Source of the DNA: Candidatus Saccharimonadota bacterium
GTDB taxonomy: Bacteria; Bacteroidota; Bacteroidia; Cytophagales; Amoebophilaceae
DNA length: 32,000 bases
Direction: 5' to 3'
NCBI RefSeq assembly: GCF_965196625.1
Contig: NZ_OZ239769.1
Span: 90,001 to 122,000, forward strand
Shown: piece by piece, positions 1 to 25,713 of the stretch
Numbering within the stretch: position 1 is the first letter of the stretch
Layout: each line of letters starts with the position of its first letter
Made by a program: the position numbers and the translations under genes
The notes under the pieces: model-generated
What the model was told of the DNA's origin: nothing
The model's input: the letters and a program-made list of their open reading frames with translations, nothing else
Databases searched by the model: none

Positions 1-429
1 CCAACCTGGCTCAGTAGGGTAATGCACCACCTCCTGAATCTTAACCAGATCAGCACTGCTCATAAAAGTTTTACGGTGCAACGAATGGTTATTATGGGTA
101 TGCCCATTGTGTAAATAATAGACGGCTCCCGTTGGGTAGCCAGCCTCTAACTCAGAAAGATTTAATGCTTGGCTATTTTTTAATGTCATGACAAAAGAGA
201 GGGTAATGCCCTCTGCTTTTTGCTGAAACAACGTCAGTGGATCATCATAGTGCTGTGAAAGCCATATCAATTCTATGCCATCTGGATGGTCCAAGAGGCG
301 CACCCTACGTGCTGTCAGCCAGGCAGCAGTAGACTGAGTAGGCTGAATGGCAAAATCATTCTGGACATTACCGGATTTATAATAATCATTCGAAATAGCG
401 ATCCGAAATAATTTGGTTGTAAATGCCAT
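1..429 (-). CDS. Hypothetical protein, N-terminal part only (runs off the left edge); co-transcribed downstream partner of the DUF4255 gene
   Basis: My own translation of the minus strand from the ATG at 429-427 gives MAFTTKLFRIAISNDYYKSGNVQNDFAIQPTQSTAAWLTARRVRLLDHPDGIELIW... It stays open for all 143 codons to position 1. The start lies 5 nt after the TAA stop (437-435) of the upstream ORF. I do not recognise a family. Confidence 0.55.
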   Translation of the reverse strand, partial: MAFTTKLFRIAISNDYYKSGNVQNDFAIQPTQSTAAWLTARRVRLLDHPDGIELIWLSQHYDDPLTLFQQKAEGITLSFVMTLKNSQALNLSELEAGYPTGAVYYLHNGHTHNNHSLHRKTFMSSADLVKIQEVVHYPTEPGW

Positions 430-434
430 AGCGA

Positions 435-995
435 TTACCTTTCACGTGATGAAAATGCAGATACTACCTTTAAACCCATTGTAGCATCTCCTATAAATAT
501 AAGCCCTACCTTATACAACAAAGAAGGACTATAAGGCGTATGTAACGTTTTCCAAAGGATAGACTTTTCTGATGGCGTCATTTTAACGAGCTCAACCGAA
601 AAACTTTCAATCCCGAGTTCTTGTAAAACAGGGGTATTGGAAGTATCAAAGTGTGACTTACTTTGAAAAAATGCTGCAACATAAGCCAGTAATTCTAAAT
701 TTTTTAATAGGTCAGATAGTTTATAATCAGTAGAAAATAAAAAATAAAGATTAAATGCTTCTGGCCTTTTGCGTAAGATAAAACCATCTGCCTGTGGCAC
801 ATATTGCGTAGGATTGCTGCACAACTCTACTGAAGTAATATCTACCAATCTCATAATAATTCCCTTTGAAGACTTACTTTCTACCTGAGAATTTCCTAAG
901 ATTGACAAAGATATAGCTGGCTCCTTTACATTCGATTTAGACTGAATGTATTGATTTACCTCAGACAATATAGTGTGCGTGCAATGATGTAGCAT
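435..995 (-). CDS. DUF4255 / Pvc16_N-like protein (Afp16/Pvc16-type component of contractile injection systems)
   Basis: 186 aa. The N-terminus (MLHH..ILSEVNQYIQ) and the C-terminal block FNLYFLFS...LELLAYVAAFFQSKSHF...ILWKTL..PYSPSLLYKVGLIFIG match my recollection of the DUF4255 pattern (LNLYxLF ... FFQ ... LW..LG..PS.lYKv). This rests on recall, not an HMM score. Confidence 0.65.
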   Translation of the reverse strand: MLHHCTHTILSEVNQYIQSKSNVKEPAISLSILGNSQVESKSSKGIIMRLVDITSVELCSNPTQYVPQADGFILRKRPEAFNLYFLFSTDYKLSDLLKNLELLAYVAAFFQSKSHFDTSNTPVLQELGIESFSVELVKMTPSEKSILWKTLHTPYSPSLLYKVGLIFIGDATMGLKVVSAFSSRER

Positions 996-1050
996 GTTTA
1001 GTCTCTTTATCGTTTGTACTGTATGCTCACACTAATGGCTACAAAAGCGC

Positions 1051-1072
1051 AAAAAACAGGCTTGCTAGCCTG
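1051..1072 (-). terminator. Possible intrinsic terminator downstream of atpC
   Basis: On the minus strand: CAGGCT-AGCA-AGCCTG (6-bp stem, 4-nt loop) followed directly by TTTTTT. It lies about 190 nt after the atpC stop and before the DUF4255 gene start. Confidence 0.4.
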
Positions 1073-1259
1073 GCAGTTTCTTTTTACCAATCTGTTCAAA
1101 TAAATGCAAGCAAGGAATAATGCCCAATATATCACATTTTTAGATTACTTTTTACTCAGAAACAAAAGAATCACTATTCTTTTACTTAAAAAGCGCAAAG
1201 CAAAACCAGCGCCAGCCGGCCTAAGCAGCAGCTGCTGCGCGCCAACTCGGCTATATAGC

Positions 1260-1514
1260 TTAATGGCCTTGTTCGATAGGGTCACAAACTACTATAAGCT
1301 GGTTGTCGGCTATTGAGGTAAAACCACCCTTTACTGCAACGGAGGATGACACTGCTCCAACGCTATAGGTGATCTGCCCAGCTACCAAACTGCTTAGCGT
1401 AGGTGCATGATGGGAAAGTACCTGAAATGGACCAAGCGCACCTGGCAACATTACATGATCCACCACTCCATTAAAAATGCTACCATTAGGCGCTATGATA
1501 GATAGATGCATCAT
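1260..1514 (-). CDS. atpC: F0F1 ATP synthase subunit epsilon (short Bacteroidota-type)
   Basis: 84 aa. The stretch SIIAPNGSIFNGVVDHVMLPGALGPFQVLSHHAPTLSSLVAGQITY is the typical epsilon N-terminal beta-sandwich pattern (..v.lPG..G.f.iL..HaP..s.L..G...). Confidence 0.85.
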   Translation of the reverse strand: MMHLSIIAPNGSIFNGVVDHVMLPGALGPFQVLSHHAPTLSSLVAGQITYSVGAVSSSVAVKGGFTSIADNQLIVVCDPIEQGH

Positions 1515-2099
1515 TCTAACTTATACTACTTTTACTACTTTACAGACCATCACCTACAACCTAAACAACTGATTGCTTTACTTACTTCTTATAAACGAAA
1601 GGTAACCAAAAGGTTTTTTAAAAGCAAATGCGCTTACACGATTGCCCATACAATTTAGATGCCGATTGATACGATTATTCGTTTATCGAGGGCTACCATA
1701 CCGCCTAATGGCCTCCTGAATTTGAAATAGATGGATCATGGCCATAAGCCCCTCCCTTAGAAGGTGCTTAAAGGCCCAATGTGTAGTGATATAGAAGCTA
1801 ACAGTAGCCGAAAAGGAAAACAATAAAGCTTGCCTTAAATCTTTACTTACTTACGAAAGTATTTGTCTCGTACGTAATGAAACAACAAATAATTCATTGC
1901 AATCATGTATAATGCTATTGCAATGGCAAAGCCAGTTTTAAATGATATCATAGACAAAAAACAATAAAGCATTCTATTAAAAGAAATAGAATGCTCTTAA
2001 TCTACAATTATTGTCGAAACAATCCAAAAAAATATCTAAAATAGCGCATGATACTAGGTTCCCTACTATGCTATAGGAAGGGATTTTATCTGTTCATGC

Positions 2100-2330
2100 A
2101 ATGGCGTCAACTTAAGGATTATATTGTATTGATTTTTATATAAAATATCATTTTAATGGGCGGGTTATGCCCATTGCGTGAAGTTAAAGCGCTAATGGGC
2201 ACGGATAAAAAGTTGGCGCGCAGCAAAAATATTAAGCGTTCAGAGTATATTGGTTCTGAACACTAAATCAGATTCTCCTCTTCTGCCTACTGGATCCACA
2301 AAGCTTTTATCGGTTAACTTGAAATTTGAC
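2100..2330. repeat. Copy A of a palindromic MITE-like repeat family (terminal motif AATGGCGTCAACTTAAGG)
   Basis: Starts with aatggcgtcaacttaagg (2100-2117). It contains attttaatgggcgg and ggataaaaagttggcgcgcagcaaaaat, which is near-identical to 12413-12440. There is a central hairpin gttcaga..tctgaac and a degenerate right arm aagcttttatcggttaac (2301-2316). Confidence 0.7.
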
Positions 2331-2470
2331 TGATCTATTGCACTAAATATCTCTATAGATAGGTTAGCAGCTAGAAAATCTAGCATAGCCTCCTTGTTAC
2401 AAAAAGTACTTTTAAACATACTATCGTGCGGCTTATCCGCTCCCTTTTTTCTTTCAAAAAAGGGCTGCTC

Positions 2471-7035: not shown

Positions 7036-8163
7036 TTAATCTAAAAGCTTATATCTCCAATGTGCTGCCTCACCATATTCTGCTATATGATCCATTCGTT
7101 CCGTACGGACTTGCATCTCTAATCGTCCATATTTGTAGGTCTCAAAGGTAAGATGAAGCGATTCATAGCTACTATCTCTTGGTATACTAATCCAGTCTCG
7201 CATAATATTACAGACCGGTTTATAAAGATCACTAACAATGCTAAGTACCCTCCAGCAGGCTATCTTTTCTTCTTGTAGGGTCTTGCCATCCATACTCCTT
7301 AAAATGATTCTAATAGCAGCAAGATCATGTATTTGATCAACATCAACATTTAACCTTTGAATCTTATGCCAAATAGAATAAATAGACTTAATACGCTTTT
7401 TTAATACGAAATCAATACCATGTGCTTGAACAGCCGAATGAATCTCCTCAGAAATAAGATCTAGCTTTTGCTGCCTTTGCAGCTTGGTCATGCCAATCTT
7501 GGCAGTAATGGAATAATAGGTCAAAGCATCTGTATACTTTAACCAAAAGTCTGCGAGTTTAGCTTGAATGTTATACAACCGCATTCTATGCGCAAGTGGG
7601 ATGTAAAAAGATTTTAAATCAAACAAAAGTTTATTACTAGAATAGTAGATCAATTCTGAATCTAAACTTTCCAATGGTACACCACTATAGTTTACGCGAA
7701 TGATGTCACAAATTTGTAATAAGATTGCTAAAACACGGGGCGCTGCCGTATCAGGCACATGGCGACAATTCAGCAGTGCACTACGACGCAACTTGCAACG
7801 CTTAAACCTATTCAACTCCACCAATATAGAAACTATCTTTAAACCAAAACGTTTTTGAATGGCTTCTTTGCGCACTAAGCCCTGCAAAAAAGAAGGCGCC
7901 AAGATGGCAGCAATAACAGCAGAAAGCCCCAAGGACATCTCCGTAGCAGCAATAACAGCTACCTCTATAGATGACTTTAGGGAAAGCTTGAACATTTTTG
8001 AATCTGCCTGCGTTTCAAAGCTTTCTGAAAATGCACAAGCCTCATGTATCTTCGACCAGGAATGTTTCATATCCTTTGGTGTTTCAGACACTACCTTTGC
8101 AAGCTGATGCAAATTCCAATCACTCAAATCAAGCATTTTATTTCTTTTCATGACGCTATACAA
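7036..8163 (-). CDS. Truncated RelA/SpoT homolog: degenerate HD domain plus (p)ppGpp synthetase domain, no TGS/ACT C-terminal region
   Basis: 375 aa. Synthetase motifs are present: KKRIKSIYSIWHKI, DLAAIRIIL, YESLHLTF, EMQVRTERMDHIAEYGEAAHWRYK. The ORF stops 4 codons after HWRYK. In the HD region the expected H..HD..ED residues read SSIEVA...AAILAPSFLQG. Confidence 0.8.
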   Translation of the reverse strand: MYSVMKRNKMLDLSDWNLHQLAKVVSETPKDMKHSWSKIHEACAFSESFETQADSKMFKLSLKSSIEVAVIAATEMSLGLSAVIAAILAPSFLQGLVRKEAIQKRFGLKIVSILVELNRFKRCKLRRSALLNCRHVPDTAAPRVLAILLQICDIIRVNYSGVPLESLDSELIYYSSNKLLFDLKSFYIPLAHRMRLYNIQAKLADFWLKYTDALTYYSITAKIGMTKLQRQQKLDLISEEIHSAVQAHGIDFVLKKRIKSIYSIWHKIQRLNVDVDQIHDLAAIRIILRSMDGKTLQEEKIACWRVLSIVSDLYKPVCNIMRDWISIPRDSSYESLHLTFETYKYGRLEMQVRTERMDHIAEYGEAAHWRYKLLD

Positions 8164-8499
8164 TCAAAAGTTTTTTACATAAACCTATTCCCGTAGCCTA
8201 CGGCATAGGCCCATGCCTCACTTCAAGTAAAGTTTATCACTTCGCTTCAAAGTTACAACTTTATTAAATTTGTATGGTACACAATAGAAGAAGCAATATT
8301 CCAACTCTTGGGAACCCTCTAAAACGAATGAATTATATATTTTAAATAAAGTCTATTAGAATTACAAAAAATAAAGCCAATATTTTTATAACTGCTTAAA
8401 TATTATTCTAATATCCAATAACAAAAAATATTTTACACAGTATTTTTAGCAAAATTTTTTACTTGACGCTTAGTCATTAAGTAGGCAGCAATTAATATG

Positions 8500-8583
8500 T
8501 ACCTGGGGCCGGAATCGAACCGGCACGATATCACTATCATTGGTTTTTGAGACCAACGCGTCTACCAATTCCGCCACCCAGGC
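8500..8583 (-). tRNA. tRNA-Leu (anticodon CAA), type II with long variable arm
   Basis: Minus-strand sequence GCCTGGGTGGCGGAATTGGTAGACGCGTTGGTCTCAAAAACCAATGATAGTGATATCGTGCCGGTTCGATTCCGGCCCCAGGTA. I folded it by hand: 7-bp acceptor, anticodon stem TTGGT/ACCAA with loop CTCAAAA, T-loop TTCGATT. Confidence 0.85.
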
Positions 8584-8590
8584 AAAAGAG

Positions 8591-8661
8591 AGGTCGCGAG
8601 TGGGTTCGAACCACCGTAAGAGGTTTTGCAGACCTCTGCCTAACCACTCGGCCACGCGACC
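8591..8661 (-). tRNA. tRNA-Cys (anticodon GCA)
   Basis: Minus-strand sequence GGTCGCGTGGCCGAGTGGTTAGGCAGAGGTCTGCAAAACCTCTTACGGTGGTTCGAACCCACTCGCGACCT. Acceptor GGTCGCG/CGCGACC, anticodon stem GAGGT/ACCTC with loop CTGCAAA, and a U73 discriminator as is typical for Cys. Confidence 0.85.
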
Positions 8662-10888: not shown

Positions 10889-11803
10889 TTAGTTGTTTGC
10901 AAACAAACGTAGACCCATAAAAGTATATTGACCAACAGAGGCTGTAATAGAGGCACCTAAACGTGCACCGGCAACAGCACCAGAATAAACCACACTACTA
11001 GCCTTAAAAGCTTTAGTTATAAGATGAATGAAATCAGGATGAGGAAGATAAGCGTAGAACAACTTTCTGAGTTTCGCTGCTTCCTGCTTAAGAAAAAGCT
11101 TCACAACAGGGTCAGCCATATACAACATAAAAGCCGCCATCATTTGAGGCATTCTAGTATCCATAGAATCAGAACTGCAACTAGGCATATCAAACCCAAA
11201 GTCGAAAATGTACATGAAAAAACATGATAAAAGTTTAGCAGTATAATTGTCCATTATACGTAGGTATAATTTTTTAGTAGGCTCCATGAGATTAACATTA
11301 TTATTAATGGCAGCACCAGCACTAGAATCAGAGGCCTTACTAACAGTCTCACAACTTGCAATTAGCCTATTAATGAAATCATCAGGATTGGAGACGAAAT
11401 CATACAAAGCTTTCCTAAGCTCCGCTGCGTGATCCTTAAAAAAACTCTTCACAACAGGATCAGCCATATACAACATAAAAGCCGCCATCATTTGAGGCAT
11501 TCTAGTATCCATAGAATCAGAACTACAATTAGGCATATCAAATCCAAAGTCGAAAATGTACATGAAAAAATCTTTGAACACCTTGCAGAAAAATTTGTCT
11601 ATTTCACCTAGAAATGCTTTTTTGCACAAATCCGTGACATCAGCATTGCTTTCATTTTGATGAGTGATCGAACTTTTCTCTTGTTCTTTTTCTAACAGGC
11701 AACCTAATCGATTTTTTGCAACTCGATTGCATCCAGTTAATCCCAATACAAGGAAACAAAAAATTAAGTATTTTAAGTTATTATTTATTTTAATTTTATT
11801 CAT
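10889..11803 (-). CDS. Hypothetical lipoprotein with an internal tandem duplication
   Basis: The signal peptide with lipobox LVLGLTG|C is at the N-terminus. Residues 79-119 and 195-235 (FFMYIFDFGFDMP(N/S)CSSDSMDTRMPQMMAAFMLYMADPVVK) are almost identical, with weaker similarity continuing beyond them. No family recognised. Confidence 0.65.
   Translation of the reverse strand: MNKIKINNNLKYLIFCFLVLGLTGCNRVAKNRLGCLLEKEQEKSSITHQNESNADVTDLCKKAFLGEIDKFFCKVFKDFFMYIFDFGFDMPNCSSDSMDTRMPQMMAAFMLYMADPVVKSFFKDHAAELRKALYDFVSNPDDFINRLIASCETVSKASDSSAGAAINNNVNLMEPTKKLYLRIMDNYTAKLLSCFFMYIFDFGFDMPSCSSDSMDTRMPQMMAAFMLYMADPVVKLFLKQEAAKLRKLFYAYLPHPDFIHLITKAFKASSVVYSGAVAGARLGASITASVGQYTFMGLRLFANN
11099..11221. repeat. 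Intragenic direct repeat, copy 2 (pairs with 11447-11569)
   Basis: About 123 nt, with roughly five mismatches by eye against 11447-11569. The two copies are offset by 348 nt, so they are in frame. Confidence 0.85.
11447..11569. repeat. Intragenic direct repeat, copy 1 (pairs with 11099-11221)
   Basis: See copy 2. Both begin tcacaacagg(g/a)tcagccatatacaacataaaagccgccatcatttgaggcattctagtatccatagaatcagaact... Confidence 0.85.
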
Positions 11804-12141
11804 TACATATATGCATATTCAGGTTATATACTAGGCCATAGTCTATTGTATAGAGTTGAGACAATTCAATTTTTATTTAAAACAGAAAAAAATGCGCCTT
11901 AGAGAGGCTGCGGTTAACAAATGCAACTTACAGCTGGATAGGAAGGCCGCATGTTTTCGCTCAAAAAGGACTAGCATAATATTAGCAAAATAGTCACTTA
12001 CGCTTGATGGCATCGGCTCAACGTAGAACAGATGCATCATGTCGGGTTATACCTGCTTCAAATCAATGGCAAAAAAGGCACTTATGGCACGTTTTTTATC
12101 ATTTTACGGGTAGTTTGCCATATAGTTGAATGGATGCGCTA

Positions 12142-12680
12142 AATGGCCGCCGATAAAAAAATGTGTATGGCTCTCCCAATGGGGTCAACTTAAGGGTTTG
12201 CGTTCAGCACTGTGGTTAAAAACGGGTTTTTTCTAATTTTTTCCTAAAATTTGGGACAAACCTTGAACGTTTTTGCCAAAAATCGTCCTAAAACATGCCG
12301 AAAATACAATTCCAGCCACACTGCTGAACGCATAATGGCATCAACCTAAGGAAAATCCATTCTAGCAAAGAGATGCAAATAGATCGTCCGCATACTCCAC
12401 CACTGCTGACCGCCGATAAAAAGTTGGCGCGCAGTAAAAATAATGAAACGAGCAATTGTTCAGCGGGAAAAACAGAACTCGCCCGCTTCACGGGCTCGAA
12501 CAGGTTGTTTTTCTGATCCGCTGAACAATTGCTCGTCAGTAGACTACAAGCTTACTGAAGCGCCAGTTTTTTTATCGGCGGCCATTAGCTGCTTCAACTT
12601 GATGTAATGGAAGCAATCCGCCCATTAAAATGATGTTTTATTAGATAGTCAATAAAATAACCCCTTAAGTTGACGCCATT
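12142..12680. repeat. Compound/nested cluster of the MITE-like palindromic repeat family (copy B)
   Basis: The terminal motif occurs three times: 12178-12195 and 12334-12351 in direct orientation, and 12663-12680 inverted. An inverted pair gcgttcagcactgtgg/ccacactgctgaacgc lies at about 12200/12314. A long imperfect palindrome spans 12410-12581 and includes a perfect 19-bp inverted repeat (12448-12466 vs 12518-12536). Confidence 0.75.
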
Positions 12681-21879: not shown

Positions 21880-23230
21880 CCAAGATCCTATCATTGCACT
21901 AGCCACCCCACAAGGGGTAAGTGCCATTGCAGTAGTGCGTCTATCTGGACAAGGTGTCATTGGCATAGTTAACCAACTGTTTTGGGGCAGTGACTTGAGC
22001 CAGCAGGCCTCCCATACCATTCATTTTGGTATGATCAAAAAGGGTGATGTGACAATTGATGAAGTCTTAGTGGCTATTTTTATTGCGCCCCATTCCTTTA
22101 CGAAAGAAGATGCAGTAGAAATTTCTTGCCATGGTGCCCCTTTTATTATTGCACAGCTGATAGAACTGTTTGTCGCACAAGGTGTGCGGATAGCTGAGCC
22201 AGGTGAATTTACAAAAAGGGCTTTTTTAAATGGCCGGTTTGACCTAGCCCAGGCAGAAGCGGTAGCCGATTTGATTGCAGCTGATAGTATGCTGGCCCAT
22301 CAAACCGCCCTTCGTCAAATGCGTGGTGGATTTTCCTTAACCCTACAAGCACTACGTAAAAGATTGCGCCATTTTGCAGCTATGTTGGCATTAGAACTAG
22401 ATTTTGGAGAGGAAGACATTGCCTTTTTAGACAGAAAGGATTTACACAGATTAGCTGACGAGCTTATTACAACCTTAACGGAGCTGATAGATAGCTTTCA
22501 ACTAGGCAATGTGATTAAGCAAGGTGTTTCTGTAGCGATTGTAGGCAAACCCAATGTAGGCAAATCCACCTTATTGAATGCCTTATTACAGGAAGAGCGG
22601 GCCATTGTTTCGCCTATAGCTGGTACTACACGGGATACCATTGAGGGAACCCTACACTTAAATGGCATACGGTTTCGGTTTGTAGATACTGCTGGGCTAC
22701 GCGCAACCGCCTCAGATACGATAGAAGCAATAGGCATTGAACGGACCAAAACGCAATGCAGCAAAGCCTTTGTAGTACTTTATTTGATTGATCTATCTGA
22801 TATGACCCTTACACAAGCAGAAGACGACTTGGTTACATGGGAGTTAGAAGGCTTGCCTCTACTTAAAATTGGCAATAAAATGGATCTAGCACCAGCTAGT
22901 GCGCTAGAAAGCTTTAAAGACTATCTTTTGATTGCAGCACAAACAGGAAATGGCATCGCAACGCTTAAAGATAAGCTTGTGCAACTGGTAGCACAACAAC
23001 CTAGCGATGGGCTAGCCACTATTGTGATCAATGCACGCCATTGCGACCGGCTACAAAAAAGCAAGCAGGCATTAGCCGATGTGATTACAGGGCTGGCGCA
23101 AAAACGATCCAATGAATTACTCGTTGTAGATATAAACCGTGCCCTATATGCACTGGGTGAAATTACAGGAGAGATTACCACAGAAGAAATTCTAGGAGAA
23201 ATTTTTTCGAAATTCTGCATTGGAAAATAA
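21869..23230 (+). CDS. mnmE: tRNA modification GTPase MnmE (TrmE)
   Basis: 453 aa. N-terminal DPIIALATPQGVSAIAVVRLSG, G-domain GKPNVGKSTLLNAL / DTAG / NKMD, and the C-terminal FCIGK motif. It overlaps the truA stop by 11 nt. Confidence 0.95.
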   Translation: MNHNQDPIIALATPQGVSAIAVVRLSGQGVIGIVNQLFWGSDLSQQASHTIHFGMIKKGDVTIDEVLVAIFIAPHSFTKEDAVEISCHGAPFIIAQLIELFVAQGVRIAEPGEFTKRAFLNGRFDLAQAEAVADLIAADSMLAHQTALRQMRGGFSLTLQALRKRLRHFAAMLALELDFGEEDIAFLDRKDLHRLADELITTLTELIDSFQLGNVIKQGVSVAIVGKPNVGKSTLLNALLQEERAIVSPIAGTTRDTIEGTLHLNGIRFRFVDTAGLRATASDTIEAIGIERTKTQCSKAFVVLYLIDLSDMTLTQAEDDLVTWELEGLPLLKIGNKMDLAPASALESFKDYLLIAAQTGNGIATLKDKLVQLVAQQPSDGLATIVINARHCDRLQKSKQALADVITGLAQKRSNELLVVDINRALYALGEITGEITTEEILGEIFSKFCIGK

Positions 23231-23629
23231 AACAGGGCGCATTAAATTCTATAAAAGCCATTTATCTTACACTCTATATCGCGCTTATGCATCCCTATAT
23301 AATAAAGAACAGGATCTGGATACCAAAAAAGAAGATAAAAAACTAAAAAGAGCGGAACAACAAGGCAATTTTACCGAAAGTATGCAAATACCGGTTGGAA
23401 ACGCAAGTGTTAAGCAAATGATAAATGCTAGATTTTATGCAGATAAAACCGCTTATATTGCTAAACTTTTTAAGGGTTAGGGGACTTATTACTTCTTTAT
23501 AAGGCCGCGTAGATTTGGCAAATCTCTATTACTAGATACGATAGATCAAATCGCACAAGACAAAAAGTCTTTGTTTAAGGAGTGCGCTATTTACAAAGAT
23601 AAAAGTTATAAATGGGACAATATTTTGCT

Positions 23630-24060
23630 CTTTTTTACCCGAAATTAGTAGGAAAGCTAGCATCAAGGTTCAGAGAGTCATAAAATCATGGAGAATACAT
23701 CACATCACGTGGACCACGTTGGAGTCGATATCAAAGAAAATAAATCCCAAAGTCAGAGGCTGGTATCAGTACTACGGCAGGTTTTATAAATCGGCGATGT
23801 ACAGACCTCTCGTTAATATAGAGAGATATCTCGTAAGGTGGCTCCAGGCCAAGTATAAGAAACTACGAGGTCACGAAAATCTAGCAAAGCAATTTCTAAG
23901 AAAAGTGAGAGCTGATTCTCCATCTATATTCTATCATTGGACGCTTGGGTTGAGATTATGAGAGAGATCAAAGGCTAAATAATGGGAGCTGCATAAATCG
24001 AGAGATTTCCGTGCAGTTCTGCGAGGGGCTGGTGGGGAAGTTCCACCGGTCTACTCTCCT
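23630..24060 (+). mobile_element. 5'-truncated group II intron remnant (3' part of the IEP ORF plus ribozyme domains V and VI)
   Basis: The maturase/X-domain reading frame is ..PEISRKASIKVQRVIKSWRI..SISKKINPKVRGWYQYYGRFYKS..LVRWLQAKYKKL.., with its stop at 23959-23961. A canonical domain V and a domain VI-like hairpin follow. The 5' boundary is approximate (+/-15 nt) and the 3' boundary is about 24056-24062. Confidence 0.8.
23986..24019 (+). ncRNA. Group II intron domain V (34 nt)
   Basis: GAGCTGCAT-AAATC-GAGA-GATTT-CC-GTGCAGTTC. It has the AGC triad and a 9-bp lower helix that includes the G-U pair at position 3. It also has a 2-nt bulge, a 5-bp upper helix and a GNRA tetraloop. The architecture matches the classical GAGCCGUAUGCGAUGAAAGUCGCACGUACGGUUC. 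A domain VI-like helix follows (24021-24059), ggctggtgg/ccaccggtc, with a candidate bulged branch A at 24053. Confidence 0.85.
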
Positions 24061-25713
24061 GGTTGAATTTCTCAGAACTGGCCAAAGATAACCCAACGGA
24101 ATTAAAAAAGGGCCTGAACAGAAAATTGTATAAGATCGCCAAGGCGCATAAAGTTCATGATAAGATCAATATCGAAATAGATGAGGCTTGTGAAGATTAC
24201 TTATCAGAAGTATTTGATTTGTGCACCGAGCTGGACCACTACGAACCTACCCCTATTGTCTTAATCGATGAATACGACAGTCCACTCATTTCTTGCACAA
24301 AAGGGCAGTATGAGGAAGTGCTTTCTCTGTTTAGTTCATTCTTCAAAGTTTTAAAGAGTCGTCAAAAGGACTGTAAATTTATTTTTGTAACGGGTGTAAC
24401 CAAGTTTCATTTATCTGGCCTTACCTCAGGGGCTAACTCGGCCAATGACCTATCCTTGCATGAGGATTATGCAGAGATGCTAGGGTATACAGAAGAGGAT
24501 ATGAATAACCTGTTTTTTAATGGTAAGCAGCTATATGTTAATGAAATTATAACCAATTTACAAGAAAACTGGGATAAATCAGAAAACTATATAGCCGCAC
24601 AACTCAAACAAGCGTTAAAAGAATATTACAATGGATACTGTTTTAGCCGCAATAAGCGTACAAGACGGATGTATAACCCCGATTCTATATTAAAATTCTT
24701 TAGAGATAAATCATTTGGTAATTACTGGTCCAACTCTGGTAACCCTGCCATCTTACTACAACAAATCAAAAATAATATCGATAGATTTATGATCCTTTGG
24801 GATAGCTCTAGCTTTGCCATCCATCAGCTAGACTTTGAAACCTTGGCCAGTTCGCTCAACGAAATAGCCTTACTCCCTTTAATGTACCAAACCGGTTATC
24901 TTACCCTAGATCCTAATGGATTTAAAGAGGACACACAAAAAGATAAAAATGCAACGGACTATTATTTAAAGTTTCCTAACCAGGAAGTAAAATCCTCTTT
25001 AAAGCTGACCTTATCTAGGTATATAGCCGAAAAACAAGAAGAAACAGGAAGAGCATATAGCAATTCTATTTTAGATGCATTAAGAAATGAAAAATGGTGT
25101 GGCTTTTTAAATCTTATTAAAGGGGGTGTTTAGCGAAAGCAGGATACCATTTTCTAGATAAAACAGAGAGGTGTTTTCAGGGCGCTTTATATTCCTTTCT
25201 CAACGGGGTTTTTCATACTACGCAGGGTATGCAAGTGAATGCGGAATTAGCCAGTGGACTAGGCCGTTTGGATATTGCGCTAGAGGATAAACAGCACCAA
25301 ACTGCTTACATTTTTGAGTTAAAAGCAGGAAAATCGGTCTCAGAAGCTTTGCAGAAAATCTACGACAAAGATTATAGCACGCCATTCCATACATGCAACA
25401 AAAAAGTATTCGTAGGCTTAAAATATGATGCTGCAAAACGCAACATTACAGAGTCAACTATTGAAGTACATCAACGCAATGCGCAACATGCTTTTAAGGT
25501 GATGCCACGTAAAAGCTTTTCCGTTAATGCGATGGGGTATTTTCAAAAATAGGTTATGCAATAGGTCTCATAGAAAAGCATCTGTCGTTCAAGTCAATAG
25601 TAAAAATATAGCTAATAACATTTTATAAATTTGTGAATTTGACATTCCGAACTAAATTTGAATATAACTGTCAAGGTAGTGTAAATTTATTCCTAAATAA
25701 TTAATAGGCAAAG

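Follow-up and report, generated by a model that had tools for sequence, protein, structure and literature searches.

What do the two minus-strand genes at the left edge of this stretch of DNA encode, and do they belong to a machine that still works? The window, the whole stretch of 32,000 nucleotides that was analysed, breaks off within the second of them, and the original prediction, made from the letters alone, took the pair for the first genes of a contractile injection system (CIS) operon running off the left edge. We put the probability at about 90% that positions 1–995 are the first two genes of the sheath–tube–cap module of a T6SS-iv-type (clade Ib) CIS of a Cardinium endosymbiont, encoding a short cap and the adaptor that goes with it. 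The features concerned are collected in Table 1.

Table 1. Features at the left edge of the window and the basis on which each is assigned
Feature	Position	Strand	Basis
Cap adaptor gene (Cis16B/Alg16B family), first 143 codons of 286, cut by the window edge	1..429	-	Profiles, fold, orthology, dN/dS
Spacer, cap stop to adaptor start	430..434	-	Read from sequence; same spacing in L001, L002, L003, L005, L006
CIS cap / tube–sheath terminator gene, complete (Cis16A, Afp16/Pvc16 N-domain type, 186 aa)	435..995	-	Pfam, PDB matches, orthology, dN/dS
Intergenic region atpC–cap, 264 bp, presumed promoter/5' leader of the operon	996..1259	-	Alignment A3, terminator-like match
atpC	1260-1514	-	

Read directly from the sequence, the cap ORF begins with ATG and ends with TAA at 437–435. 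In a Pfam search its product matches PF14065 (Pvc16_N/DUF4255) with E = 7.9e-21 and a score of 75 bits, where the curated Pfam cut-off for that family is 27 bits, and the alignment takes in nearly the whole domain, pairing cap residues 6–171 with profile positions 3–169 of 180. The original prediction had recognised the DUF4255/Pvc16_N pattern in a few motifs and had proposed a Pfam profile search of the ORF; the motifs are present, and that search yields a significant match. A sequence search of the PDB leads to solved cap chains, namely 9wt1_A (E = 2.1e-7) and 7adz_0A, the AlgoCIS cap (3e-7), with further matches to 9r9n_B from SalCIS (4.3e-4) and 7b5i_AA, the Anabaena cap (2.1e-3). The protein is 39% identical to Aasi_1072 over residues 1–170 of 186 (E = 1e-44) and is the orthologue of Aasi_1072 and CAHE_0456. 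Its nearest homologue in a protein database search is 89% identical, and every homologue of the cap or of the adaptor is from Cardinium or another member of the Amoebophilaceae (Bacteroidota).

The second ORF opens at an ATG at 429–427, reads MAFTTKLFRIAISNDYYKSGNV... and meets no stop over 143 codons to base 1, so that its earlier description, as starting five nucleotides past the cap stop and staying open for 143 codons to the window edge, is correct to the base. The full-length protein of the source genome, P0031, has 286 aa, and its residues 1–143 are identical to the window translation. It aligns over its full length with Aasi_1073 (34% identity, E = 3e-54) and is the orthologue of Aasi_1073 and CAHE_0457; the closest homologue to the window adaptor is ~76% identical. 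The same prediction had called this ORF a member of an unrecognised family and an uncharacterised component. The former holds in the sense that a Pfam search finds no match for the ORF; in addition, a Pfam search of 56 family members found no model that covers the family, a match to DUF5479 at E = 0.051 was set aside as noise, and looking up the clusters of distant members gave no names. The latter does not hold, as the protein is a cap adaptor of the Cis16B/Alg16B type.

This identity is assigned because three lines of evidence agree: a direct profile, the fold and a wider family profile. With the adaptor protein of the Cardinium locus L001 as query, we gathered homologues, and a profile of 24 of them from Cardinium and other Amoebophilaceae (A1) has only two matches in the PDB, 7b5i_AB, which is All3326 of the Anabaena CIS cap complex (E = 0.001), and 7adz_1A, the AlgoCIS cap adaptor (E = 0.0087, spanning query residues 18–188). 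These direct E values are marginal. An AlphaFold2 model of P0031 has a mean pLDDT of 69.6, with residues 92–142 below 50, and Foldseek places the same two chains at the top for this model, 7adz_1A at E = 1.2e-8 and 7b5i_AB at E = 1.3e-8, each with a probability of 1.00 and with TM-scores to the adaptor chains of 0.45–0.48. What the model shares with the solved adaptors by this comparison is an Ig-like N-terminal domain followed by a small C-terminal beta-barrel. Finally, an exhaustive HMM search collected 749 representatives of the adaptor family at E ≤ 1e-3 and 144 at E ≤ 1e-10, and a profile of 56 sequences drawn from these representatives (A2), which is iterated and so could in principle have drifted, has as its best PDB match SalCis16b (9r9n_C, E = 3.6e-28, full length), followed by Alg16B (7adz_1A, 1.7e-23) and All3326 (7b5i_AB, 1.5e-22), with nothing else significant in the whole PDB. 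In 7adz, 7b5i and 9r9n alike, the partner chain of the adaptor is a DUF4255 cap. The C-terminal motif YSDIVVYV of P0031 corresponds to YSEIFI at the C terminus of Alg16B.

The surroundings of the pair can be read from six related loci, five from Cardinium (L001, L002, L003, L005 and L006) and one from an Amoebophilaceae MAG (L004). In all of them, cap and adaptor are followed on the same strand, and in the same order, by a sheath, two ~150-aa proteins, a gp19-type tube, a small plug and CIS_tube, with sizes of 184–186 aa for the cap, 286–289 aa for the homologue of the second ORF, 495 aa for the sheath, ~149 aa for the tube, 57 aa for the ORF in the plug position and ~400–450 aa for CIS_tube. 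The sheath of these loci has Phage_sheath_1 and Phage_sheath_1C domains. The two ~150-aa proteins past it have no Pfam match; they are homologues of Aasi_1075/1076, and their genes lie between those of sheath and tube, at 12491–13473 in L005, 12489–13472 in L001 and 11618–12628 in the Amoebophilus locus L009. Single-sequence searches of the PDB with this pair and with the 57-aa protein gave no meaningful match, and the 57-aa protein is equivalent only in position to the DUF5908 plug of L009 and of the metagenomic locus L007. The adaptor stands directly after a short cap, with the sheath next, in L001–L007 and L009. The gap between cap and adaptor, which in both L001 and L005 is the 5 nt that separate 9995 from 10001, is 8 nt in L004. 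Because it is 5 nt in the window, co-transcription of the two genes is suggested, and possibly coupled translation. In the source genome, the sheath gene probably lies next to the adaptor gene as well, to judge from this synteny and from the contig itself, which encodes an intact 495-aa tail sheath protein, P0201, of the same 90% cluster as the sheaths of the relatives.

How far the operon extends past the window edge can be gauged from the same loci. Beyond the CIS_tube gene the neighbours vary by strain (gyrA, trypsin-like proteases, a transposase, a metallo-beta-lactamase, TatD), and in the loci of the Cardinium relatives no spike or baseplate genes (VgrG, PAAR, gp25) adjoin the module. Because the neighbours past CIS_tube differ between strains, we take the Cardinium module to measure ~6 kb and not the full 15–25 kb. 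To the left, the operon almost certainly continues for another ~5.6 kb and includes neither spike nor baseplate genes. The idea of a CIS operon that begins here and leaves the window on the left is therefore well founded, as sheath, tube and tube-initiator genes follow the pair in the six related loci, but the 15–25 kb locus with VgrG, PAAR and gp25 that the original prediction looked for in that direction is not to be expected, since the modules of Cardinium relatives stop after ~6 kb.

The T6SS-iv locus of Amoebophilus asiaticus 5a2 (L009, Aasi_1072–1082), an organism that belongs with Cardinium to the family Amoebophilaceae, has the same first eight genes in the same order, and the sheath of the closest complete relative is 77% identical to Aasi_1074. 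In that locus and in L007, however, the cluster continues into VgrG, PAAR, gp25, a ~830-aa protein and a CIS_TMP protein, whereas in Cardinium it breaks after CIS_tube and the remaining genes are elsewhere. Penz 2012 reported that Cardinium cEper1 has 16 AFP-like genes spread over five regions (PMC3486910), with CAHE_0456 to CAHE_0463 as the counterparts of Aasi_1072 to Aasi_1079 (PMC3486910) and with spike/baseplate genes at other loci, CAHE_0763, 0762 and 0037 (PMC3486910). Since publications already cover the locus, the order of its genes and the way it is fragmented in Cardinium, we claim no new system here; the injection system at the left edge of the window is one that earlier work on Cardinium and Amoebophilus has described.

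Between atpC and the cap gene, alignment A3 reveals an AT-rich block at ~1118–1150 (minus strand) that is conserved among the Cardinium loci. Downstream of it lies a GC hairpin with a T-run behind it, at 1072–1057 (minus strand) and only 62 nt before the start codon of the cap; it could either terminate atpC or act as an element in the leader of the CIS operon. A sigma-70 promoter scan found 11 matches against 7.7 ± 2.4 in the shuffled background; because this is not above background, we claim no promoter.

It is less straightforward to decide whether a machine is built from these genes and, if so, of which kind. In a reduced genome, the cap and adaptor ORFs could be degenerating relics of a prophage tail or of a CIS cluster that no longer build anything. 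Such decay would accord with the fragmentation of the Cardinium cluster, whose module ends after CIS_tube among neighbours that differ per strain, and with the mobile-element debris in the window, a transposase together with a fragment of a group II intron. At 186 and 286 aa, however, both genes have their full length, as do all their homologues, their order and 5-nt spacing are kept across strains at about 57–61% amino-acid identity, and high transcription has been reported (PMC12342168). Moreover, purifying selection acts on both genes: against relatives, the cap gives a dN/dS of 0.10–0.20 and the N-terminal half of the adaptor one of 0.14. Such low ratios favour a working machine. Decay therefore seems highly improbable. 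Hardly more can be said for the idea that the second ORF encodes another Ig-like protein, structural or adhesin-like, that is merely encoded beside the cap. The ORF has no Pfam family, the confidence of its model is moderate, and the lower Foldseek ranks are Bacteroides adhesin- and pilin-like Ig folds; yet these folds, which come next after the two adaptor chains, are about four orders of magnitude weaker, and no match other than those chains reaches a probability of 1.00. In addition, cap adaptors are all that the sequence profiles match in the whole PDB, and the position and length of the gene are as in Alg16B and SalCis16b. We give this reading very little credence.

A further alternative accepts both gene identities and concerns the mode of action. 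What the same genes build might be an AlgoCIS/MAC-type extracellular CIS, freed by cell lysis, and not a membrane-anchored intracellular T6SS-iv. Cap and adaptor are common to eCIS (AlgoCIS, SalCIS) and to intracellular clade Ib systems, and nothing in the window tells the extracellular mode from the intracellular one. Against lysis-dependent release, the nearest orthologues that have been characterised belong to the T6SS-iv locus of Amoebophilus, and the filament arrays of Cardinium have been described as attached to the inner membrane and attributed to T6SS-iv (PMC12342168). An extracellular particle is thus unlikely, and the membrane-anchored T6SS-iv-type machine is the reading that we prefer.

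For that T6SS-iv-type machine, the solved systems offer a model by analogy. A hexamer of the short Cis16A cap would close the distal end of the inner tube, at its last tube layer, and a hexamer of the Cis16B adaptor would surround the cap and, through a "handshake" in which strands are exchanged, tie it to the last layer of the sheath. This link from cap through adaptor to sheath may end sheath polymerisation and stabilise the extended, loaded state. The pair would be co-transcribed with the sheath, the two ~150-aa proteins, the gp19-type tube, the small plug and the tube-initiator CIS_tube, and the spike and baseplate genes would lie elsewhere in Cardinium genomes. Anchored in the membrane, the assembled system would fire from inside the bacterium into the host cell. 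An assembly role for the adaptor would be in keeping with what is seen in other systems, where deletion of Alg16B in AlgoCIS (PMC8894135) and of SalCis16b in SalCIS (PMC13266070) leads to mis-assembled particles, either particles in which cap and distal sheath layer are missing or tube–baseplate complexes only (PMC8894135, PMC13266070). According to a 2025 review (PMC12342168), every sequenced Cardinium has T6SS-iv homologues, whose transcription is high (also PMC3486910) and which probably make up the filament arrays characteristic of the genus (PMC12342168).

Among the characterised systems, AlgoCIS (PDB 7adz) likewise has a split cap, with Alg16A at 197 aa versus 186 aa here and Alg16B at 284 versus 286 aa (PMC8894135). 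Its cap and adaptor are the first two genes, as in Cardinium, and a C-terminal YS-I motif is common to both adaptors. The two adaptors differ in that Foldseek aligns them at an identity of ~13% and in the poorly predicted segment 92–142 of the Cardinium protein, and the systems differ in that AlgoCIS is extracellular and belongs to a marine bacterium that lives free, not to an endosymbiont such as Cardinium. SalCis16a/SalCis16b (9r9n) and All3327/All3326 of the Anabaena tCIS (7b5i) are, like the window pair, double-cap assemblies of clade Ib; they come from other phyla and have other anchoring, and All3326, at 399 aa, is longer. Afp16 of Serratia and Pvc16 of the Photorhabdus PVC, which belong to clade Ia eCIS, also act as caps and have the DUF4255 domain at their N terminus. 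Those proteins, however, are two-domain proteins of ~295 aa that act as the cap alone, whereas the window cap, at 186 aa, is the N-domain only and has a separate adaptor gene beside it. Assignment to the Afp/PVC type was rejected on these grounds.

The segment 92–142 of the adaptor, which is partly encoded in the window, appears to be specific to the lineage in Amoebophilaceae, and it is the poorly predicted part of the model. One could speculate that it gives the distal end a function that AlgoCIS and SalCIS lack, and that the separation of the cap–sheath–tube module from the spike and baseplate genes allows these two halves to be regulated independently. The segment might, for example, make lateral contacts that pack tubes into the parallel arrays of Cardinium, or it might serve in cargo docking. 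We regard this combined proposal as a long shot.

The rest of the window contains housekeeping genes, among them atpC, Ppx/GppA, PrmC, HflX, RelA/SpoT, S1 and lipoamide dehydrogenase, and Pfam annotation of its ORFs found no further CIS genes there, spike and baseplate genes included. Two ORFs of 495 and 417 aa, lengths that recall the sheath and CIS_tube, are a Na+/H+ exchanger and an MFS transporter. The housekeeping genes upstream of the pair are collinear with those of L005, the locus of the Cardinium of Philonthus spinipes and the closest complete relative. Window positions 1515–2470 hold no long ORF; the counterpart in L005 (6357–8666) holds an extra 2.3 kb with a gene for a 469-aa, alanine-rich, lipoprotein-like protein that has no Pfam match. 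Because this gene is absent from the window and from L001–L004, it is not part of the CIS. The RelA/SpoT homologue at 7036–8163 (minus strand) has 375 aa and consists of a synthetase domain and a weak HD match, without the C-terminal regulatory domains; that of L005 is of similar length, 371 aa. Between the RelA/SpoT and S1 genes lie tRNA-Leu(CAA) and tRNA-Cys(GCA), at 8499–8661 (minus strand).

Several other elements of the window deserve mention in their own right. An Rfam match to group II introns (RF00029, domain V/VI) at 23984–24059 (plus strand, 49.8 bits) directly precedes an N-terminally truncated PF09820 AAA-ATPase_like ORF at 24063–25133, and there is no ORF large enough for an intron-encoded protein in 23230–23984; the match looks like a remnant of a mobile element. 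An intact transposase of the Mutator/IS256 family (PF00872, E = 3.8e-120) lies at 27613–28827 (plus strand). At 29713–31902 (plus strand) we find an ABC exporter with a C39 peptidase domain, of the bacteriocin/T1SS type, which fits the prediction, in a review (PMC12342168), that some Cardinium strains carry a T1SS. ORFs at 10889–11803 (minus strand, 304 aa) and 28911–29327 (plus strand, 138 aa) have no Pfam match.

In general, naming the formerly "hypothetical" second gene as a cap adaptor allows better annotation of Cardinium and Amoebophilus genomes, and its identity makes it a testable assembly factor. The T6SS-iv-like machine to which it would contribute is thought to be the main route by which Cardinium delivers proteins into the cells of its arthropod hosts, and the filament arrays by which the genus is defined are likewise thought to be formed by it.
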